A stretch of DNA of 64,000 nucleotides from an uncultured delta proteobacterium. Lineage in GTDB: Bacteria; Desulfobacterota; Binatia; UBA9968. Both the position numbers and the translations under genes were made by a program. The DNA is taken from NCBI GenBank assembly GCA_963755715.1, contig CAVWLW010000032.1, positions 105,991-169,990 on the forward strand, written 5' to 3'. The notes beneath the pieces were generated by a model, which was not told where the DNA came from, searched no databases, and saw only the letters and a list, made by a program, of their open reading frames with translations. Numbering within the stretch: position 1 is the first letter of the stretch; each line of letters opens with the position of its first letter. Below, piece after piece: positions 37,865-63,999 of this stretch.

Positions 37865-38284
37865 TTACTTAGTGGCCGGTTTCTTCTCCGTCACGTCGCC
37901 TTTTTTCTCCGTCGCTTTTTTGGATCCGGCCTTGACCGAGGTGGCGATCATCTTTCCATCCTTCTCGGTGTAGGAAACCCTCACCATATCGCCCACTTTG
38001 ACCTTTTCCAGCGCGTCTTTAGCGCTCTTGGAATCGGCGGCCAGCTTGATCTCTTTGTCATTTCCCTTGACTGCGAATGTGCCCGCCTTCGCGTCCACCG
38101 ACGTGAGCTCACCGGTAATCCGATGGCTCTTCGCCTTCTCGGATTTCGTCTCCGTTTTCTTCTCTGCCGGAGCGGCTGGAGTCGCGGGTGTAGCGGGAGT
38201 AGCCGGTTTCGTCTGCGCGAAGCCGAGAGCGCTGAAACTTAACGTAGTCAAAGCGACAACTAAAATCTTGATCATGTTTTTCAT
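37865..38284 (-). CDS. Small secreted Lys/Ala-rich protein with a probable OB-like domain
   Basis: Signal peptide, (PAT)n linker, ITGELTSVD...VKVGDMVRVSY; AGGAGG RBS. Confidence 0.8.
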   Translation of the reverse strand: MKNMIKILVVALTTLSFSALGFAQTKPATPATPATPAAPAEKKTETKSEKAKSHRITGELTSVDAKAGTFAVKGNDKEIKLAADSKSAKDALEKVKVGDMVRVSYTEKDGKMIATSVKAGSKKATEKKGDVTEKKPATK

Positions 38285-38540
38285 GGTATCACCTCCTTTC
38301 TTTTTGTTAGACTTGGTTGTTAGACGTGATATTTTCAAAATCCCTTCAAATGCTCCTATAGGTAATAAAAATCTCACACGGTAGCTCACTTAGCCAGTTG
38401 TACGCGATATCCGGACATCCGCACCCAGTGAACTTGTGGTGCTCCGATTCCTGGATTCGCACAGCATTATTTAAACATTGTGAGGAAGCGTAGTGCAGAG
38501 TGGTCCTTCAGAAGCGGAGGAATCGCAGCCTAAATTTTTA

Positions 38541-38782: not shown

Positions 38783-39831
38783 TCAATCGCCGGTGAGATA
38801 CGCGTCGCGGTAGCCCTCTTGGCTCGCCAATGACTGGCGCACCGATTCCGCCTCTTCTCGAGCGTCGAAATGTCCGACCCGGACGCGATAATAGGTTTGT
38901 CCTTTCACCTCGGCCTTGACCACGTAGCTATCATAGCCGCCGGCTTTTAACCGTTCGATCAAAGTATCGGCAACAGCTTTCCCGGGCACAGCGGAAATCT
39001 GCACCGACCATTTTTTGCTCACCTCTTCAGTCGACTGAGAGGTGTGCACGCGTGGCTTTGCTGGAATTGGCGCGGCGCTTCGATTCGCGCGCAACTGGCT
39101 GTCTCGATCGAAGACACGTTCTGCGGTCTCGAATCGATGCCAACCTGTCCCGAGGCTGTAGACTGCGCGAGCGGAACTCGCGGCGGGGATTTTTCGCTCG
39201 CCCCATCCGCTCGCTCTTGAATATTCTTGTTGGTGAATAGGCCAAGATAAAAGATGACGACCGCGGTCGCGGCAAACAACGCCGCCGACACGATGCCCCG
39301 CATCCAATTAAAATAAAAGCGCCGGTGAATTTTCGGGTGCTTTGCACGCTCGCCCCCCGGTAATTCCCGATGATCGGAGTAAGTTTCTAAAGCCTGGCCG
39401 TCAAGGAGCGACTCGCTCGCGATCGAGCCATGGGATGGCGGGAAAGCTTCAGTCAAGGCTGCTTTGGTCTGTAACACGGGCCGGAACCTTGCGATCAACT
39501 CGGCGGCTTTGGCGCCGCGTAATTCCGCCGCGCAAGGTTCAAACGTAAACCCCGTCGGCCGTAAGTGTCCAGACTGAAAGTCGGTTTCGCTTTCGTGGCG
39601 CAGCAAGGCCTCCTGGATGTTCGCCGACTCGCCGATAAAAACTTGGCAATCGAAGTTGAAGAGCCCGTATACACCTGAAGTCGACGGCGCGGTGGCCGAG
39701 ATTGCCTCTCGTGTGAAACTTTCCGAACGGCCCTCCGGCTTCCACGACAAGCTCCAGCGCACCGGCTCTTTCTCAATATCTGCAGCGGGTGACTTCAAGA
39801 TCGGACACCTGAACAAATGTCTTAGATGCAT
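38783..39831 (-). CDS. GIY-YIG-like domain + TM helix + SPOR domain protein (frameshift near 39093)
   Basis: SGVYGLFN..VFIGESANI...AELIARFRP; hydrophobic GIVSAALFAATAVVIFYLGLF; WSVQISA...YYRVRVGHF SPOR motif in the second frame. Confidence 0.7.
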
Positions 39832-40134
39832 TAACAGTTCGACAATGTTGCGACTAGTTTAAACGACTCCGAAGAGTGTGTCACGAAATAATGCTGCCCA
39901 TCGAGGGTCTCTTGCCTGAAAACGATTGCGAATTAGGAACTCAGTGGAAGGGCATGGCAAAAGTGTGCTCAACGAGTTTCAATCTCGCCAGATCATCGTG
40001 CGCGTACATATGAAACGATTTAATGCCCTATCGCTCGGTCGCCAATAAGGTTTGGCCGGCGAGATGCGCGGCGAGCTAGGCAATACTCCCGCCCGACCGT
40101 CAGGCCGTGCTCCAGGCTTTTCTGCCGCTAAAAC

Positions 40135-40741: not shown

Positions 40742-41830
40742 ATGCATCTTCCCGTGAACCCGCCCGTTTTGCCGATGCTCGCCAAGCGGGTCGAGGAATT
40801 ACCGGCAGGCGCAACATGGATCTTCGAACCGAAATGGGACGGCTTTCGCGCTCTGGTGTTTCGCGACGGGGACGAGGTCCTGATCCAGAGTCGCGACGGG
40901 AAGTCACTGAACCGTTACTTCCCGGAACTGCTCGAGCCGCTCTGCGCACAGTTGCCCGTGCGCTCCGTGCTCGACGGCGAAATCGTCGTCGCCAAGGATG
41001 ACGCGCTCGACTTCGATGCGCTGCAGTTGCGCATTCATCCCGCGCAGTCGCGGGTGAAGCTTCTTTCGCGAGAAATTCCAGCGTCGATTGTGTTTTTCGA
41101 TCTGCTCAGCGAGGGAGATCGGGATCTGCGCAGCATGGCGTTCGCAGATCGTCGATCCATGCTCGAATCGCTGCTTTCATCCGTAGCGCCGCCGATCCAT
41201 TTGACGCCCGCAACCAGAGAATCGAGCATTGCGGCGGATTGGTTTCGTCGCTTCGAGGGCGCCGGTCTCGACGGCGTCGTCGCCAAACCCGTTTCGGGAA
41301 CCTATGAATCCAACAAGCGGGTGATGCTCAAGGTCAAGCACGAGCGCGATTGTGACTGTGTCGTTGCCGGCTTTCGCTGGCACAAAAAAGGTGAGCGCAC
41401 GATGATCGGGTCGCTCTTGCTGGGCCTTTTCGACGACTCCGGCGCGCTGCAGCATGTCGGCGTGTGCGCGAGCTTCACGGAAAAGAAGCGCCGCGAGCTG
41501 GTCGAATTCCTCGCGCCGTACCGCGATAATGCTCTTGCCGCGCACCCTTGGAAAGATTGGGCCGAGCATGCACCAGCGAGCGGTGAAGCCGAACATCGCA
41601 TGCCTGGCGCCCAGAGCCGGTGGAGCGGGGGCAAGGACTTGTCTTGGGAGCCGCTCCGTCCCGAACTGGTCGTCGAAGTCGCTTACGACCACATGCAGGG
41701 CAGCCGCTTCCGTCACACCGCGCAATTTCGCAGGTGGCGCACGGACAAGAAGCCGAGCGAGTGCACGTACGCCCAGCTCGAAATCGTTCCGCCACAAGAG
41801 CTGGCCGCGATTTTCGCTGGCGATCGGTGA
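40742..41830 (+). CDS. ligC: ATP-dependent DNA ligase, LigC-type
   Basis: EPKWDGFR, LDGEIV, FFDLL, DGVVAK, KVKHER, LRPELVVEVAYD, RWRTDK. Confidence 0.9.
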   Translation: MHLPVNPPVLPMLAKRVEELPAGATWIFEPKWDGFRALVFRDGDEVLIQSRDGKSLNRYFPELLEPLCAQLPVRSVLDGEIVVAKDDALDFDALQLRIHPAQSRVKLLSREIPASIVFFDLLSEGDRDLRSMAFADRRSMLESLLSSVAPPIHLTPATRESSIAADWFRRFEGAGLDGVVAKPVSGTYESNKRVMLKVKHERDCDCVVAGFRWHKKGERTMIGSLLLGLFDDSGALQHVGVCASFTEKKRRELVEFLAPYRDNALAAHPWKDWAEHAPASGEAEHRMPGAQSRWSGGKDLSWEPLRPELVVEVAYDHMQGSRFRHTAQFRRWRTDKKPSECTYAQLEIVPPQELAAIFAGDR

Positions 41831-41851: not shown

Positions 41852-41876
41852 AGGGCGACCGGCCGGTCGCCCCTAC
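41852..41876 (-). repeat. GTAG-family REP overlapping the Prim-Pol stop codon
   Basis: AGGGCGACCGGCCGGTCGCCCCTAC. Confidence 0.75.
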
Positions 41877-43186
41877 GACTTCATGGCGCGTCGGTTACGC
41901 CATTCACGCGTTGGATCGTCATCCGGGTCGGGGGTTTCTTGCGCTGGGCGCAACTCTTCGGGCACCTTACGCAGATTCACTCGGATGCGGGTCCAGGTGG
42001 ACGACCTGCCGCGCATGGAGTCGATCAGCACGTCGTCGACGGCGAGCAGCGCGGCGGCTTGGGGATATTTACTTTTCCATCTTTCCAGACCGGCGAGGGC
42101 CGCTTCTTTGTCCGGCGAATTCGCAATCACCAGAAGCGGCGCTTTGGTCCGCGGCTTCTTCGCGACATTCTTCACAGCGGAACGGGCGCGCGAAGGTTGC
42201 ACGCGCGGCGCTTCGCCCTCCATCTTACGAAAATGTGGCGGCCAGGGCGCATCGCCGAGACCTGCCGCCTCGTCTGCCGCAGCGAGCTCTAGCAGCTTTT
42301 CGAGCGAACCTGGCGCGGCGTCGATGTCTGCGTGCGGATCGCCGAACTCCGCGAAGCGCTTGGGAACCGTGAGCACGGTGAAGTCGGCCGGGTCGCAGTT
42401 GGGGACCTCATGCCAGTGAAGCGGCGTGGACACACGGGCGTCGGCCACCGGGCGCACCGAATAGGCGGAACAAGTCGTGCGGTCCTTGGCGTTCTGGTTG
42501 TAGTCGAGGAATACGCCGTGGCGCTCTTCCTTCCACCACTTTGAGCTGGCCAGCGCCGGCGCGCGGCGCTCGACCGCGCGCGACAACGCGAGCGCGGCGC
42601 GGCGCACCTGGTCGAACGTCCAGCGTTGTTCGATCCGCGCGTTCACGTGCATGCCGCGTGAGCCGCTCGTTTTGGGCCAGCCATAAAGGCCCATCTCCTC
42701 GAGAAATGTTTTCACCTCGAGAGCCACGCGGCGCACGTCGTCCCAGCTCACACCGGGACCCGGATCGAGATCGACGCGTAACTCGTCCGGATGATCGAGA
42801 TCGCCGGAGCGCACCGGATGTGGATGCAGTTCGATGCAGCCCAGGTTCACAACCCACGCGAGCCCCGCTGCGTCATCGACGACGATTTCCTCCGCTTTGC
42901 GGCCGGATGGAAATGACAGCGTAACGGTGCGCAACCACGATGGCCGCTTGGCGGGTGCGCGTTTCTGATAGAAAGCCTCGCCTTCGGCCCCGTCGACGAA
43001 ACGTTTGAGCACCAGCGGACGATCCCGGATTCCAGCGAGAGCGCCCGGCGCGACCGACAGGTAATAGCGCACGAGATCGAGTTTCGAGAGCTTTGTCTGC
43101 TGGGAAAAATACGGCTTGTCGGGGTGGGTTACCTGGACCTCGCGCCCGTCGATCGACAGAACCTCGGCTTTGTCTTCTTTCATCAC
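41873..43186 (-). CDS. Stand-alone AEP primase-polymerase (Prim-PolC/LigD-Pol-like)
   Basis: THPDK, FYQKR, ELRVDLDP, KTSGSRGMH, VFLDYNQN, SAYSVR. Confidence 0.9.
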   Translation of the reverse strand: MMKEDKAEVLSIDGREVQVTHPDKPYFSQQTKLSKLDLVRYYLSVAPGALAGIRDRPLVLKRFVDGAEGEAFYQKRAPAKRPSWLRTVTLSFPSGRKAEEIVVDDAAGLAWVVNLGCIELHPHPVRSGDLDHPDELRVDLDPGPGVSWDDVRRVALEVKTFLEEMGLYGWPKTSGSRGMHVNARIEQRWTFDQVRRAALALSRAVERRAPALASSKWWKEERHGVFLDYNQNAKDRTTCSAYSVRPVADARVSTPLHWHEVPNCDPADFTVLTVPKRFAEFGDPHADIDAAPGSLEKLLELAAADEAAGLGDAPWPPHFRKMEGEAPRVQPSRARSAVKNVAKKPRTKAPLLVIANSPDKEAALAGLERWKSKYPQAAALLAVDDVLIDSMRGRSSTWTRIRVNLRKVPEELRPAQETPDPDDDPTREWRNRRAMKS

Positions 43187-50337: not shown

Positions 50338-50578
50338 TGGACAAACGTCAACTTTTGGAAGTAGAAATCGCGGTGGTAATGCATGTGCGAGGGGGAGAAC
50401 GAGCAAACATGGCTGCCCGCCGAGATTGATGATCTGTTTTATCAGATCGACAAATGAACAAACTACCAGACTTGATCTTTCAGTCTCCCCATAATTTCAG
50501 TGCGGCGAATATTTACGCAAGTAAGGCAAGTCTGATTCGGCAGACCGCCTCTAAGTGCCGGAGAGAGGGGTAACGACC

Positions 50579-53357
50579 ATGGCAGGGGGATCCAGAAATC
50601 TAATAGTTCTTTCGGACGGAACCGGCAATAGCGCGTCGAAGGCGTTCAAGACCAATGTATGGCGCCTTTATCAGGCCCTCAATCTGCGGGACGGAAAACA
50701 GGTCGCTGTGTTCGGCGACGGCGTCGGAACATCGAGCATTACGCTTCTGCGGATCATCGGCCTCGCGCTCGGCGTGGGGGTGAAGCGCAATGTGCTCAAT
50801 CTCTACAAGTTCCTGTGCCACAACTACTGGCGGGAGGAAAAAGACGGCCGGACAGAGAGCGACCGCATCTGGATGTTCGGATTCAGCCGCGGCGCATTCA
50901 CGATCCGCGTGCTCGCCGGTTTGGTGCATTCCGAAGGACTGGTCACGTTCGAGACCGAAGCGGATTTGGAAAGGAATGCGCTCGCCGCCTATCGCGCCTT
51001 TCGCAAAAAGGCTTTTCCTGCGAAGGCCTGGTGGGTCTTTTGGGTCCCGGTCGGGCGTTGGGTCCGCGACGTTTTGATTTCCTTGTGGCAACCTATCACG
51101 GGCGGCGTCCCATACGAGCATGTAGCAAAGCGTGAGAACATCGAAATCCATTTTGTTGGGGTGTGGGACACGGTCGCGGCCTATGGCCTGCCGATCGACG
51201 AACTCACGATCGCGGTCGACAAATGGGTCTGGCCGATGAAGTTCGAAGATACCTCACTGCTGGAACGCGTGCGGCACGCGCGACATGCCTTGGCACTCGA
51301 TGACGAGCGGCGAACCTTTTACCCAATCCCCTGGGACGAACGGGAGGAAAAGAAGCAGCGCGGCACGGTCGATCCCGATCGCCTCACGCAGGTCTGGTTT
51401 CCCGGTATGCATGCCGATGTCGGCGGCGGATATCCGGACGATGGACTCTCATTCGTGCCGCTGTGCTGGATGATCGGCGAAGCGGAGAAGAAAGGGCTGA
51501 ACTTCGAAAAACTCATCGTCGAGACCTATCGGTCGCTCGCATCGCCGACTGGCCGCCTTTACGATTCACGCGGAGGGATCGTTGGCGCGCTGTGGCGCTA
51601 TCAGCCACGCAATGTCCAGTTGCTGATGGACAAGAACGATGACACGGTCCCATTGGATAAAAGGGTCACGCCGCTGGTGCATCATTGCGCGGTGACGCGC
51701 ATGACTTACGGCAATGACGGCTACGCGCCGAAGTCGCTGCCATTCAAGATCAACATTCTGCTGCCGAACGATGCGCGAATCCCGTTTGACACGAGCGAGG
51801 TCAATACCGCTTTGCAGACGGTCACCGATGCCCCCACGAAGACGGTGCTAACCGATCTCAAAACGCTGATTGAGACGGCGGAAGCTCAAGAAAAGCGCGG
51901 GCATTACTTCGCGTTGGTGCTCGACACGATCTGGTGGCGGCGGTGCGTCTATTTCGTCACGCTCGGACTGGCGTTGATCGCGCTCGCATTCCCGGTGATC
52001 TATGCGCTGCTCGATTGGGGCGACAAGACCGAAAAGATCAATCAGATCACGGGCGGCACTGTCGCTTACCTGCTCAGGCTCTTCAAAGGATTCATACCGA
52101 GTTTTGCGAGCCCGTGGGTCGATGCTGTTACGCAGGAGCCCCCAACCTGCCGTCAATATCGTCCTGCTTTTCATCATCAGTCTCGCGATCAGTGGCGTCC
52201 TGAAGCGCCGTATTCAGGACCGCGCCCGCGCCGCGTGGAACGTTCAGCCGAAGGTTGGCGATAAAAAGATCGATCGTTTGAGGCTCGCGGGGCAGCGCCA
52301 TGCACTTGCGGCAGCGGCCGTCGTCCTCGCCATTGTCGCTTATTTCTCGTACGGGAATTGGAAGAGCTTTTGGGCGGCGGTCATCGGCGCAGTGCTGAGC
52401 GCGCTTGTCGTCTTCTTCCGAAGAAAAGAGCCCAAGAAAGTCGATCCAGCGAATCCGCCTGCCGCGTTATGGATCGCACGCGAGCTCAGAAACTCAAAAA
52501 AGGCCGTTGCTGCCTATCGCTGGGCCGCGCAAACTGGATTCCCTGCGCTCTTCATCCTGATCGTTGCCTGGCTCGCCGCGTCGGGGCTGAACCTTGGACT
52601 ATACAACCTGCGAAGCACGAACGGCGCTTTCTGTGAGGCGGACGAGGTTGATAAAAACCAGACTGAGGAGGCGCGCAAGCAGGAAACGCAGCAGCGGGCC
52701 CTGAATGACAAGCTAGGCTCCGCAACTGTCGATATCAGTTCGCCATGCGCTCGCACTGGCCTGTGGCTCGTCGCCGGGCGGCAATACCGCATCCGGATCG
52801 AGCCTGGGGTCGCTGAGACTGCGCCAGGGACATTCGAGAAAAAGCCTGAATATGCCTGGTTCGACAAAGGCACGCCTGCCGATGTCGTCGGCTTTGGCGT
52901 TGATAGCCGCGCTCATTTCGCAGGGATGACGCTGAAGCACTGGTGGCGGGAAAACTACTTCCAGCCGATCGCGCGGGTTGGGAACATCGGCAATTACGAA
53001 TATCCGCTCCATCCTGCTGCGCCGCTTCCCAAGGTGGATTTTTCAACCTGCAAAGCGGACGCGCCAGCTGACGTTGAAAGCCCGGCGCCGGTGTCCGCGA
53101 GGCTAGAGGAACTGGGCTGCGAGAAAAGGAAAGAAATCCAGCGAAACGAAGTGCTGATCGCCGACATCACGCCGGACTCGACCGGAGAGCTCTACATCTA
53201 TGTCAACGATGCCATTCTGTTTTGGGACAGTCGAGACCATCACAAGTTCTACAAGAACAACAGCGGCAAAGCGAAAGTCACCGTGACGCGGACTGTCGCG
53301 CCCGCGACAGTCGATTTCAATTCCGCCGAGGGCGGCAAACCGCAGCAACGCAATTGA
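50579..53357 (+). CDS. DUF2235 (Tle1-like alpha/beta hydrolase) with TM segments and C-terminal beta domain (frameshift near 52140)
   Basis: SDGTGN, TNVWRLY, GFSRGA, GVWDTV, HALALDDERR, WFPGMHADVGGGY; an extra C in a C-run joins the two ORFs. Confidence 0.82.
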
Positions 53358-54753: not shown

Positions 54754-55443
54754 TTGAGCGATAACATTATTTCCTACATTGACATGTGCCGACGCGAGGG
54801 CACGAGTCTCCAGCAAGGAATGAATTTTGGTATAGGTGGAACTCACTCAGTCATATTGATGTCGGTTCGGCGCAATGCACCATATAGGGATCGGCTTGAA
54901 GATAACGGTACAACTCTCGTTTACGAAGGGCATGATCAACCAAGAGGACCGAAGCAACCGAATCCAAAGACTTTAGATCAGCCAGAACGATTTCCTTCTG
55001 GTCGACTAACACAGAATGGCAAATTTCATAAGGCCGCCCAGCTTTTTAAAACTGGAAAACGCCCGCCAGAGCGCGTACGGGTTTATGAAAAGATTCACAA
55101 GGGAATATGGTCCTACAATGGTATTTTCCATCTTGTCGATTCTTGGTGCGAAGGTGATGAGTTCCGCGAAGTGTTCAAGTTCCGCCTAATCGCGGTCGAA
55201 GGAGACGAGCGATTTGATCAACCGCCTCAAAGGAACCTTCAACGGCGTCGCTTGATACCGACACCGGTCAAACTCGCAGTCTGGAAAAGAGATGGTGGAA
55301 AATGCGTGATCTGTGGCGCGACTGACCAGCTTCACTTCGACCACGATTTACCTTGGTCAAAAGGTGGGACATCGGCAACTGAAAAAAACGTGCAGCTACT
55401 CTGTGCTCGCCATAACTTGGAGAAACACGATCAGATTATATGA
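54754..55443 (+). CDS. HNH endonuclease with N-terminal SRA-like domain
   Basis: PYRD...LVYEGHD...QNG...RVYEK...YNG.F; VWKRDGGKCVIC...HFDHDLP.SKGG...NVQLLC..HN. Confidence 0.8.
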   Translation: MSDNIISYIDMCRREGTSLQQGMNFGIGGTHSVILMSVRRNAPYRDRLEDNGTTLVYEGHDQPRGPKQPNPKTLDQPERFPSGRLTQNGKFHKAAQLFKTGKRPPERVRVYEKIHKGIWSYNGIFHLVDSWCEGDEFREVFKFRLIAVEGDERFDQPPQRNLQRRRLIPTPVKLAVWKRDGGKCVICGATDQLHFDHDLPWSKGGTSATEKNVQLLCARHNLEKHDQII

Positions 55444-63480: not shown

Positions 63481-63999
63481 ATGTCGGAATTCGAAGCTCA
63501 CGATATTGATTTTATGAAGCTCGCTTTGGCCGCCGCCAAAGAAGCTGCCAGCCGTTGGGAAGTTCCGGTTGGGGCCGTTGTCGTGGCGGCTGGAGAAGTA
63601 ATCGGCACGGGTTATAACTGCCGCGAAGAGCGCCAGAGTCCGCTCGGACATGCCGAAATCGTAGCCGTCGAAGAAGCGTCCAAGCAGTTGGGTACTTGGC
63701 GTCTCGATCAATGTGATATCTATGTCACGCTCGAACCCTGCCTCATGTGCATGGGCGCGATCTTGCAGGCGCGAATTCGTAAGTTAGTGTTCGCCTCTCT
63801 CGATCCGAAGGCCGGCGCGGTTGAATCTCTTTATCGATTATGTGAGGATCAACGGCTCAATCATCAATTACCGGCGCTAGGCGGCGTTCTAGCCGATGAA
63901 TCCGCGGCTTTACTTGCGGATTTTTTTGCGCGCCTAAGATCGCGCAAACGAGATACACGAAAAGCGGAGAGGTGGCCGAGCCCGGTTGAAGGCGCTTGA
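63481..63999 (+). CDS. tadA: tRNA adenosine(34) deaminase
   Basis: EVPVGAVVV, HAE, TLEPCLMCMGA, DPKAGA, LLADFF. Confidence 0.93.
   Translation: MSEFEAHDIDFMKLALAAAKEAASRWEVPVGAVVVAAGEVIGTGYNCREERQSPLGHAEIVAVEEASKQLGTWRLDQCDIYVTLEPCLMCMGAILQARIRKLVFASLDPKAGAVESLYRLCEDQRLNHQLPALGGVLADESAALLADFFARLRSRKRDTRKAERWPSPVEGA

Follow-up and report, generated by a model that had tools for sequence, protein, structure and literature searches.

A predicted GIY-YIG-fold pseudo-nuclease domain fused to a transmembrane helix and a SPOR domain in a Binatia bacterium

Gene organization and the frame break in the window copy

In the 64,000-nt stretch of DNA analyzed here (hereafter, the window), which belongs to an uncultured delta proteobacterium of the Binatia (GenBank contig CAVWLW010000032.1), a single gene is located on the minus strand from 39798 to 38783 (38783..39798). 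It begins with TTG, ends with TGA, and encodes a 338-aa protein if a 1-nt deficit is bridged; this is the length of the intact homolog P0001 (338 aa, 95% identity). As written, the region is divided between two open reading frames (ORFs). The first, 39019..39831 (−; 270 aa), contains GVYGLFNFDCQVFIGES followed by one hydrophobic segment, and the second, 38783..39307 (−; 174 aa), lies in a different frame and holds a SPOR domain. All of the elements that a first-pass annotation of this DNA had assigned to 38783..39831 were found there, but the true start is TTG at 39798 and not ATG at 39831. The TTG codon (39796..39798, −) was present in eight of nine aligned loci, with GTG in the remaining one (L001). 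An SD-like AGGTG (39806–39810, −) lies 8–12 nt 5′ of the start, the upstream block (a/g)GGTGcCCGATC was conserved across the aligned loci, and in-frame stops were observed 3–7 codons 5′ of the start in four loci (L002, L003, L007 and L008). The start was placed at TTG 39798 because of the conserved TTG/GTG, the SD-like aGGTG and these nearby upstream stops. A promoter-like GTGACA-17-TAAACT (39856..39884, −) is a consensus match and a weak candidate, since three such sites were found compared to 1.2 ± 1.3 in shuffled sequences.

Homology searches returned 317 homologs at E ≤ 1e-3. Among the 120 listed, the length ranged from 238 to 463 aa, and a family-derived SPOR HMM matched 116. In intact homologs the protein is encoded by one ORF of about 325–390 aa, P0001 being the best of them, and 13 of 15 species-representative genome loci carried a single intact ORF. 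The first-pass annotation had read the region as one gene, fused through a transmembrane (TM) helix to a SPOR domain, and had proposed a search for full-length homologs, in which two separate genes would speak against the fusion; 116 of the 120 listed homologs carry SPOR, and the two-gene alternative failed.

The single frameshift that had been suspected upstream of the SPOR domain was located at 39092..39096 (−), within the periplasmic linker, where 5 nt replace two codons of the intact homologs. Codon GCC (A234, 39097–39099) is followed by AGTTG and then by CGC-GCG-AAT (RAN) in the −1 frame, and the intact homologs read IETA-xx-RANRSAAP, with two codons at xx. The upstream frame runs into a premature stop (39019..39021, −) 25 codons past the break, and the as-written product from TTG is 259 aa. 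A real deletion would leave the window copy with a membrane-anchored product that has no SPOR domain, whereas an assembly error would mean an intact protein. The chance that this copy is genuinely a pseudogene or a truncated allele, in which a 1-nt deletion drops the SPOR domain and leaves a 259-aa membrane-anchored stub, appears to be slightly short of even. The break site is not a homopolymer, and the assembly does not look indel-prone, because no second split gene was noticed in the 64-kb window. The same linker region is interrupted in two more genome copies, L008 and L011, in L008 by a 2-nt insertion relative to the near-identical L007. However, both halves of the window gene are otherwise undamaged and approximately 95% identical to intact P0001, and linker-confined breaks in 3 of 16 copies would also be expected if strains were mixed, or the consensus was wrong, in metagenome assemblies. 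Given the frame-broken copy, the whole protein may not be made in the window organism. The pseudogene reading is limited to the window copy and does not conflict with any interpretation of the family.

The recurrence of linker frame breaks in other copies had been overlooked in the first-pass annotation. Programmed −1 frameshifting was considered because the SPOR domain lies in the −1 frame in the window, L008 and L011. It was rejected as the main reading, as most copies need no shift, the break positions differ, the window break site has no slippery heptamer, and an agreement in direction of 3/3 has a 1-in-4 chance.

When 17 window neighbors were compared by tblastn to 15 related loci, no conserved neighbor was detected; the sole match was of 25% identity and lay ~1.2 kb upstream in L004. 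A Pfam scan of 39 flanking ORFs from eight loci detected no division genes; the genes identified were metabolic and unrelated. The gene is therefore without a conserved operon among the 15 related loci. A functional link to the neighboring genes for LigD ligase and Prim-Pol was rejected because no conserved neighbor was found; the LigD genes that lie beside the window gene were absent from all 15 loci.

Membrane topology and domain folds

The protein contains a single TM helix, GIVSAALFAATAVVIFYLGLF (residues 168–188 from the TTG start; 39235..39297, −), with a mean Kyte–Doolittle value of 2.34, and no 19-residue stretch elsewhere in the protein reaches 1.6. The flank on its N-terminal side carries five K/R and no D/E, and that on its C-terminal side carries three of each; on the basis of these flank charges (positive-inside rule), the predicted topology is N-in, C-out. 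The preceding cytoplasmic linker (39298..39447, −) contains an (H/R)E(F/L)P motif, of which F and P (alignment A1, columns 245–246) are almost invariant, and a basic juxtamembrane sequence, KHPKIHRRFYFNWMR (flank charges +5/0). The periplasmic linker (39020..39234, −) is of low complexity, rich in S, A and P, and shows the lowest conservation in the protein (mean pairwise identity, 0.37). It is followed by the SPOR domain (38801..39019, −; Pfam accession number PF05036, profile positions 2–72 of 76), which was detected at E 4.3e-16 with 59.4 bits, compared to a gathering cut-off of 21. The family profile also matched the solved SPOR domains of CwlC (1x60), FtsN (1uta), DedD (6ztg) and DamX (2lfv). 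The one TM helix, the low-complexity linker and the C-terminal SPOR domain had all been proposed from the sequence, and all three were confirmed. SPOR domains bind denuded septal glycan strands and localize to the septum, as stated in bioRxiv 10.1101/2022.07.01.498525.

The N-terminal domain (residues 19–117; 39448..39744, −) was assigned to the GIY-YIG fold from an AF2 model, Foldseek, a profile comparison to the PDB, and the occurrence of PF01541 in its relatives. The AF2 model, built from a 114-row alignment, had a pLDDT of 80.9 and a pTM of 0.72. Its strands and helices (E42–47, E52–58, H61–71, E83–88 and H91–105) follow the order beta-beta-alpha-beta-alpha, as in the GIY-YIG superfamily. 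With the shallow alignment A1 (34 rows, 68–98% identity) the pLDDT was 44.6, indicating that distant relatives were needed for a usable model. In the Foldseek search of the PDB, ranks 1–10 were all GIY-YIG domains. UvrC of Thermotoga maritima and Bacillus caldotenax came first (E 2.5e-4 to 4.2e-3; probability, 1.00; target TM, 0.65–0.77), followed by GRXS16 (2lwf, E 5.1e-3) and then R.Eco29kI, T4 EndoII and I-TevI. The family profile matched the UvrC N-terminal domain (1ycz) at E 0.0034 and GRXS16 (2lwf) at E 0.026, and a single-sequence search of the PDB gave one match, 2lwf, at E 0.9. A homodimer prediction for the domain scored 0.02 compared to a mark of 0.42, a value that speaks neither for nor against a dimer.

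The Pfam scan of the window N-domain detected no family at E ≤ 1, the PF01541 cut-off of 22.6 bits not being reached, and NCBIfam gave a sub-threshold UvrC match only (E 0.04). The GIY-YIG assignment of this domain thus rests on transitive and structural evidence. Among 47 scanned relatives, PF01541 was listed at E ≤ 1 in 26 and reached its gathering score in 10, which are standalone proteins of ~100 aa and match the window domain at E 4.8e-10 to 1.4e-7. The closest clusters in the ESM Atlas consist of 100-aa proteins, and 13–31% of their members carry PF01541. A phmmer search with the 120-aa N-domain against 1.84 billion representatives returned 291 matches at E ≤ 1e-3 (86 at E ≤ 1e-10), indicating that the likeness is more than chance. 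Judging from the model and these matches, the N-domain is predicted to have the GIY-YIG nuclease fold, closest to the UvrC N-terminal domain. The first-pass annotation had proposed this fold and named Foldseek as a check; the PF01541 matches in relatives, the UvrC profile match, the AF2 model and the ten best PDB matches all bear the proposal out.

Active-site positions and conservation

When the domain was aligned by HMMER to T. maritima UvrC (1ycz), Y19 corresponded to Y44, Y29 to F54, R39 to A64 and Y43 to H68. The correspondence of E76 to A98 and of N88 to Q110 depends on a single weak alignment, P0236–1ycz (E 0.16), transferred via MAFFT alignment A2. The UvrC numbering is consistent with the PDB titles of the mutants Y19F, Y29F, Y43F and N88A. 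In the window domain F, A, A and Q thus stand for Y29, R39, E76 and N88; of the five canonical catalytic positions, four have changed (Tyr to Phe, Arg to Ala, the metal-binding Glu to Ala, and Asn to Gln). The motif pair GVY...FIGES had been recognized from the sequence and is present in GVYGLFNFDCQVFIGES of ORF 39019..39831 (−). GVY (residues 42–44) is kept, and the second motif reads FIG (54–56); the superfamily spacing is 10–11 residues. The catalytic Arg, Glu and Asn had likewise been read as replaced in QEALLRH, KAAELI and RPVLQ, and A64, A98 and Q110 map to these motifs as claimed, the Glu and Asn positions via the weak alignment. The conserved helix-1 Arg (UvrC R39) is described as a signature residue of GIY-YIG nucleases in a figure legend of PMC9071465. 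The accessible part of a GIY-YIG census (PMC1564403) contains no mention of transmembrane or inactive members, nor of E76, R39 and N88, and that of a nucleotide excision repair review (PMC7835731) contains no list of catalytic residues.

In the 47 fused sequences, the GIY Tyr was kept in 45 and the His in 38, and the YIG Tyr column held F in 22, L in 11 and Y in 3. Arg was found at its column in none of the 47 (A in 31, T in 9), compared to 21 of 66 short sequences. The Glu column, at which the alignment is weak (E 0.16), held A in 38, V in 5 and M in 2 of the fused sequences. At the Asn column, which follows the last helix and lies at Pro+3, Q was found in 35 and N in 2 of the 47, and N in 42 of the 66 short sequences. 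Fused sequences retained zero to two of the five canonical residues (one in 40 of 47), and short sequences retained up to all five, the complete set occurring in 2 of 66. Because four of the five canonical positions are replaced, the N-domain is, by its sequence, a predicted pseudo-nuclease with respect to the canonical mechanism.

The mean pairwise identity was 0.79 in the GIY-YIG-like domain and 0.78 in SPOR, compared to 0.37–0.48 in the linkers, and dN/dS between the window and eight loci was 0.09–0.18. Both domains are under strong purifying selection. The hallmarks shared by fused and standalone sequences are P38, G42, Y44, G56, L65, P81, F84, E87, R94, L101 and P107.

The standalone GIY-YIG proteins of ~100 aa are the nearest relatives outside the fused clade (30–45% identity, E 1e-11 to 1e-7). 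Unlike the fused protein, they lack both the TM helix and the SPOR domain, and many retain more canonical residues, the commonest signature being YYRHQN and the full Y, Y, R, E, N being limited to the two sequences above. In a tree of the domain, the separation of fused from standalone sequences took 6 label changes, compared to 36.9 in shuffles, some of the short sequences being contig-end fragments of fused genes. These relatives fall in ESM Atlas clusters named ‘hypothetical protein’, and some overlap Pfam DUF7508. The graded standalone series, from fully canonical to degenerate GIY-YIG, had been missed in the first-pass annotation.

Proposed function and relation to known systems

The combination of a GIY-YIG-like domain, a TM helix and a SPOR domain in one protein is unreported. 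We consider it somewhat probable that the family represents a bitopic SPOR-class protein of the inner membrane, in which a GIY-YIG-fold pseudo-nuclease serves as a septal, non-catalytic binding module. The proposed order is a cytoplasmic GIY-YIG-fold domain, an N-in TM helix, a disordered periplasmic linker and a canonical SPOR domain. By analogy with studied SPOR domains, the latter would bind denuded glycan strands at the division site and so concentrate the protein at the septum, and the pseudo-nuclease domain would be held at the cytoplasmic face of the septum as a binding module. As to its ligand, the neutral to acidic character of the domain and the absence of the conserved Arg lead us to favor, slightly, a protein over DNA.

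This layout (cytoplasmic N-terminus, one TM helix, long low-complexity linker and C-terminal SPOR) is that of Escherichia coli FtsN, DedD and DamX. In FtsN and DedD the cytoplasmic part consists of short tails only, whereas the cytoplasmic head of the window protein is predicted to be a folded GIY-YIG-like domain. The NCBIfam matches were all far below their cut-offs: TIGR02223 FtsN (27.8 vs 107.65), NF008179 FtsN (18.4 vs 525), NF008641 DedD (15.8 vs 150) and NF007953 RlpA (25.2 vs 201). Homologs are labeled DedD or DamX in the source databases; judged by profile scores, these names are not supported, since DedD was below its cut-off and DamX was without a model in the NCBIfam output.

The best structural and sequence-profile match of the domain was the UvrC N-terminal domain (1ycz/1yd0–1yd5; 1yd6). 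The two share the AP..(S/P)GVY lead-in, the (Y/F)IG strand, the L..H helix and the LI...P...(N/Q) ending. Unlike UvrC and Cho, the window protein is without UvrB-binding, RNase H-like and HhH domains, and unlike UvrC, it is membrane-anchored and SPOR-fused; the UvrC model NF011261 gave 12.4 bits compared to a cut-off of 818. Arabidopsis GRXS16 (2lwf) likewise joins a GIY-YIG domain to an unrelated module, but it is a glutaredoxin fusion and a soluble chloroplast protein, whereas the window protein is SPOR-fused and membrane-anchored. The N-terminal GIY-YIG domain of GRXS16 reportedly has nuclease activity.

Alternatively, although we regard it as unlikely, the dead GIY-YIG domain still binds DNA, and it would tether or sense the chromosome at the closing septum, for example by coupling clearance to constriction. 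Every solved relative among the Foldseek matches is a GIY-YIG domain acting on DNA, and the strong conservation of the active-site face, including the GIY Tyr (45/47) and the His (38/47), suggests a retained ligand pocket. The GIY-YIG domain of plant MSH1 is said to bind branched DNA without cutting it, which also speaks for DNA binding. However, the domain lacks a basic character: its net charge is −2 in the window (pI 5.6) and averages 0.0 across the 47 fused relatives. The conserved Arg is missing from all 47, and a conserved acidic stretch, HESETDFQS, adjoins the active site. Isolated GIY-YIG catalytic domains, moreover, bind DNA weakly and rely on extra DNA-binding domains, which are absent from the window protein. 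Nor is any DNA-metabolism gene conserved nearby, LigD being in none of the 15 loci. Less probable still is an unrecognized divisome-associated class in Binatia-like bacteria, in which a septum-anchored, dead UvrC-type GIY-YIG domain acts as a sensor of DNA or DNA structure. If this were true, the binding of SPOR to glycan would couple the sensor to septal wall remodeling, linking chromosome clearance and constriction.

A further candidate, which we consider improbable and marginally behind such a sensor, is an enzyme, a nuclease or phosphodiesterase using Y44, H68, E87, R94 and E100 at the inner membrane face. Y44, E87 and R94 were at least 90% conserved over 114 rows including standalone relatives, and a Glu two residues past the canonical site (E100 in the window) was present in 29 of 47 fused sequences. 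An unconventional active site may exist, given that E87 and R94 are nearly invariant and E100 is close by. The low dN/dS (0.09–0.18) agrees with such activity, but purifying selection is equally expected of a binding module. Against an enzyme, the replacement affects four of the five canonical residues at once. The changes Y19F, Y29F, Y43F and N88A in T. maritima UvrC reportedly abolished activity. PDB titles present these mutants as active-site probes, and give R.Eco29kI as inactivated by a lone Glu-to-Gln change (3mx4). Finally, the reading of the region as two abutting genes, one for a small protein of the cytoplasm or membrane and one for a SPOR protein, can be dismissed as very improbable: the window as written does contain two overlapping ORFs in different frames, but the intact homologs are single ORFs, the SPOR ORF itself encodes neither a signal peptide nor a TM helix, and its sole upstream starts fall within the TM helix and linker of the other frame.

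SPOR proteins are the best-understood route by which bacterial proteins are sent to the division site, and the role of each depends on its non-SPOR part. In this protein that part has a predicted nuclease fold whose chemistry appears to be lost and which is conserved as tightly as SPOR, which argues that selection maintains a non-catalytic role for it on the inner side of the septum. The series that begins with canonical standalone GIY-YIG proteins, passes through forms with Gln for Glu and ends in the fused form with its four substitutions would provide a clear natural example of the passage from nuclease to pseudo-enzyme. We know of no cell-biology data for the candidate phylum of the host. 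As a whole, the protein is most likely a septal-ring protein of Binatia-like soil bacteria, in which a putative pseudo-nuclease domain would act as a binding module.

Gene structure, start codon and topology

On the minus strand, a 270-aa ORF (39019..39831) contains GVYGLFNFDCQVFIGESANIQEALLRH and, further on, one hydrophobic stretch; a downstream 174-aa ORF in another frame (38783..39307, minus strand) ends in a SPOR domain (Pfam PF05036, E 4.3e-16; 59.4 bits, cut-off 21). The N-terminal motifs, single transmembrane (TM) helix and C-terminal, differently framed SPOR domain described in the first-pass annotation were all present. Three-frame translation showed that the upstream frame reads to ...SSIETA, and that the -1 frame goes on ...RANRSAAPIPAKP... 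into SPOR. A full-length homolog search, proposed in that annotation along with a fold search, retrieved 317 proteins at E<=1e-3 with the 270-aa ORF as query. The 120 listed were 238-463 aa long, and 116 of these matched a SPOR HMM that was built from the fusion family itself. The top homolog, P0001 (338 aa; source name 'DedD'), was 95% identical, and homolog sequences were unbroken across IETA-xx-RANRSAAP. When one genome per species was scanned, the gene turned up at 15 loci, 13 of them with a single intact ORF of ~338-390 aa. These comparisons indicate that the GIY-YIG-like and SPOR halves are one gene, as had been claimed, and the intact single-ORF homologs contradict the alternative of two separate genes.

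At the break, the window has five nucleotides (AGTTG, 39092-39096) in place of two codons in intact homologs, so that the periplasmic linker is one nucleotide short. Three of the 16 genomic copies were broken in the linker before SPOR, each with SPOR in the -1 frame: that of the window, locus L008 (8001-9085; 2 nt are inserted compared with L007, which is almost identical and intact) and locus L011 (175-1280; split upstream of SPOR). The breaks in the window and L008 both lie within about 15 nt downstream of a TCGATCGA motif. The C-terminal tails of five database homologs (P0123, P0128, P0144, P0149 and P0171) also look out-of-frame, and no further split genes were found in the 64-kb window. 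The three recurrent breaks may stem from errors of assembly, from mixed strains or from genuine lesions; for the window copy, a real lesion and a consensus error in the hypervariable linker are about equally probable.

Alignment of the loci indicates that the true start is TTG 39798, not ATG 39831. The start codon was TTG in eight of nine aligned loci and GTG in L001, with a conserved (a/g)GGTG 8-12 nt upstream, and L002, L003, L007 and L008 carry an in-frame stop 3-7 codons upstream of it. Read from TTG 39798 with one base added, the gene matches P0001 in length, at 338 codons. The sole hydrophobic segment spans residues 168-188 (mean KD 2.34). Because the preceding 15 residues include five K/R and no D/E, and the following 15 three K/R and three D/E, the positive-inside rule predicts a cytoplasmic GIY-YIG-like domain and a periplasmic SPOR domain, the periplasmic linker being rich in S, A and P.

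Fold, active site and conservation of the N-terminal domain

The N-terminal domain had no Pfam match at E<=1, and its only NCBIfam match was a sub-threshold one to the UvrC N-terminus (E 0.04). When residues 1-120 were compared by phmmer with a set of 1.84 billion representatives, 291 sequences matched at E<=1e-3, of which 86 did so at E<=1e-10 and 26 at E<=1e-30; fused proteins ranked on top, with mostly standalone proteins of 92-125 aa below about E 1e-11. PF01541 (GIY-YIG) was matched at E<=1 by 26 of 47 Pfam-scanned relatives from the standalone range and reached its gathering score in 10, the best being P0213 (31.6 bits), P0233 (29.2) and P0241 (28.6). The profile of A2, a 114-row alignment of the domain including distant relatives, matched two solved structures, the N-terminal domain of Thermotoga maritima UvrC (1ycz, E 0.0034) and the GIY-YIG domain of GRXS16 (2lwf, E 0.026). 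A2 also gave a structure model with pLDDT 80.9 and pTM 0.72 (predicted strands 42-47, 52-58 and 83-88; helices 61-71 and 91-105), and was used instead of a shallower alignment, whose model had pLDDT 44.6. Every one of the ten best Foldseek matches in the PDB was a GIY-YIG domain. The UvrC structures from T. maritima and B. caldotenax led (E 2.5e-4 to 4.2e-3, probability 1.00, target TM 0.65-0.77), then came GRXS16, followed by R.Eco29kI, T4 EndoII and I-TevI. ESM Atlas neighbours were 100-aa hypothetical proteins, with PF01541 on 13-31% of members. Since transitive sequence, profile, predicted structure and fold search, four independent lines, converge, we assign the domain by prediction to the GIY-YIG fold, in agreement with the first-pass annotation.

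The domain belongs to the GIY-YIG superfamily at the level of fold, but not by its catalytic residues. Arg and Glu are the signature catalytic residues of GIY-YIG domains (figure legend, PMC9071465). Residues were mapped from HMMER alignments to 1ycz, whose numbering agrees with the PDB titles Y19F, Y29F, Y43F and N88A. Those four point mutants reportedly lost activity in the 2005 UvrC structure paper. UvrC Y19 is kept as Y44, Y29 is replaced by F54, and Y43 corresponds to H68, a His shared with many family members. The catalytic Arg, Glu and Asn, already read as lost in the first pass, are replaced: R39 by A64, E76 by A98 and N88 by Q110, the last two positions being transferred via A2 from a weak pairwise alignment (E 0.16). 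A Glu is present two residues after the mapped E76 position. Among the 47 fused rows of A2, the Arg column holds Ala in 31, Thr in nine and Arg in none, the Asn column Gln in 35 and Asn in two, and the metal-binding Glu column Ala in 38 and Val in five; among the 66 short, standalone rows, Arg occurs in 21, Asn in 42 and, at the Glu position, mostly Gln (29). Of the five canonical residues, 0-2 remain in fused rows (exactly one in 40 of 47) and up to all five in short rows, as in P0236 and P0259; the commonest signature among short rows is YYRHQN. Because retention runs from five in short rows to 0-2 in fused rows, the alignment indicates that the family is a graded series from canonical nuclease to fused pseudo-nuclease. 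The standalone ~100-aa proteins (P0198-P0267) form a sizeable GIY-YIG-like family whose members mostly carry Gln in place of the metal-binding Glu and retain Tyr, Tyr, Arg and Asn; some weakly match Pfam DUF7508.

Averaged over all pairs of 31 intact fused proteins, sequence identity was 0.79 in the GIY-YIG-like domain and 0.78 in SPOR, compared with 0.51 in the TM helix, 0.48 in the linker on its cytoplasmic side and 0.37 in the periplasmic one. The GIY-YIG-like domain is under strong selection; its dN/dS was 0.09-0.18 between the window and eight loci (median over all 36 pairs, 0.17). A domain tree, built on few columns and including some short rows that are fragments of fused genes, grouped fused and short rows separately; it required six fused/short label changes against 36.9 in shuffles, with 0 of 500 shuffles as low.

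Distribution and genomic surroundings

The 15 loci came from metagenome-assembled genomes whose titles read Candidatus Binatia or 'uncultured delta proteobacterium', as well as from Thermodesulfobacteriota and Syntrophobacter; the assignment of a few short contigs to other phyla may reflect mis-binning. Only one of 17 window neighbours was matched in any of the 15 loci (L004, 25% identity), and eight loci were flanked by unrelated metabolic genes. Intergenic gaps of 303 and 393 nt separate the gene from its two neighbours, and a weak promoter-like sequence lies at 39856-39884, so that it appears to be monocistronic. An ATP-dependent DNA ligase with LigD-type ligase domains (40742-41830, plus strand) and a separate LigD primase-polymerase gene (41873-43186, minus strand) lie nearby; their adjacency is probably coincidental, because the window neighbours are not conserved, and the LigD genes do not accompany the SPOR gene at the 15 loci. 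The convergent arrangement of the two suggests a split NHEJ LigD.

Directly downstream, 37865-38389 (minus strand) encodes a small, probably secreted protein with a PATPATPATPA repeat and a weak match to DUF5666 that stays under its cut-off (24.1 against 27 bits). On the plus strand, a protein gene (50555-52264) with a Tle1-like T6SS phospholipase catalytic domain (E 4.8e-68) is overlapped by 263 nt by a downstream 451-aa ORF without a Pfam family (52002-53357). A 229-aa ORF (54754-55443, plus strand) joins a SAD/SRA (5-methylcytosine-binding) domain to an HNH nuclease; with its low GC3 (0.45 versus about 0.65-0.75 in neighbours), it resembles a modification-dependent restriction enzyme that was acquired. 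A cytidine/deoxycytidylate deaminase-fold ORF at the window edge (63481-63999, plus strand; MafB19-like deaminase, E 1.1e-36) is probably an ordinary TadA-type deaminase.

Comparison with SPOR proteins and proposed function

The fusion protein has the same layout as FtsN, DedD and DamX, but the NCBIfam cut-offs place it outside the FtsN, DedD and RlpA families. In the full-text literature searched, GIY-YIG and SPOR were mentioned jointly only as unrelated rows of a gene table, GIY-YIG and FtsN not at all, and 'transmembrane' was absent from the available text of the 2006 GIY-YIG superfamily census (PMC1564403). Because such a GIY-YIG fusion was found neither in that literature nor in that part of the census, we rate the GIY-YIG-like/SPOR fusion as unreported, although its components are of known kinds.

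Plain DNA binding by the N-terminal domain appears less likely than the first-pass annotation inferred, because the domain has a net charge of -2 in the window copy (mean 0.0 over fused rows), lacks the conserved Arg and contains an acidic stretch that is itself conserved. A minor alternative is residual or unconventional catalysis through Y44, H68, E87, R94 and E100. The abstract of one study states that all characterised SPOR domains bind denuded septal glycan (bioRxiv 10.1101/2022.07.01.498525). By analogy, the fusion protein would be concentrated at the division site, and its conserved pseudo-nuclease head would then act as a binding module at the cytoplasmic face.
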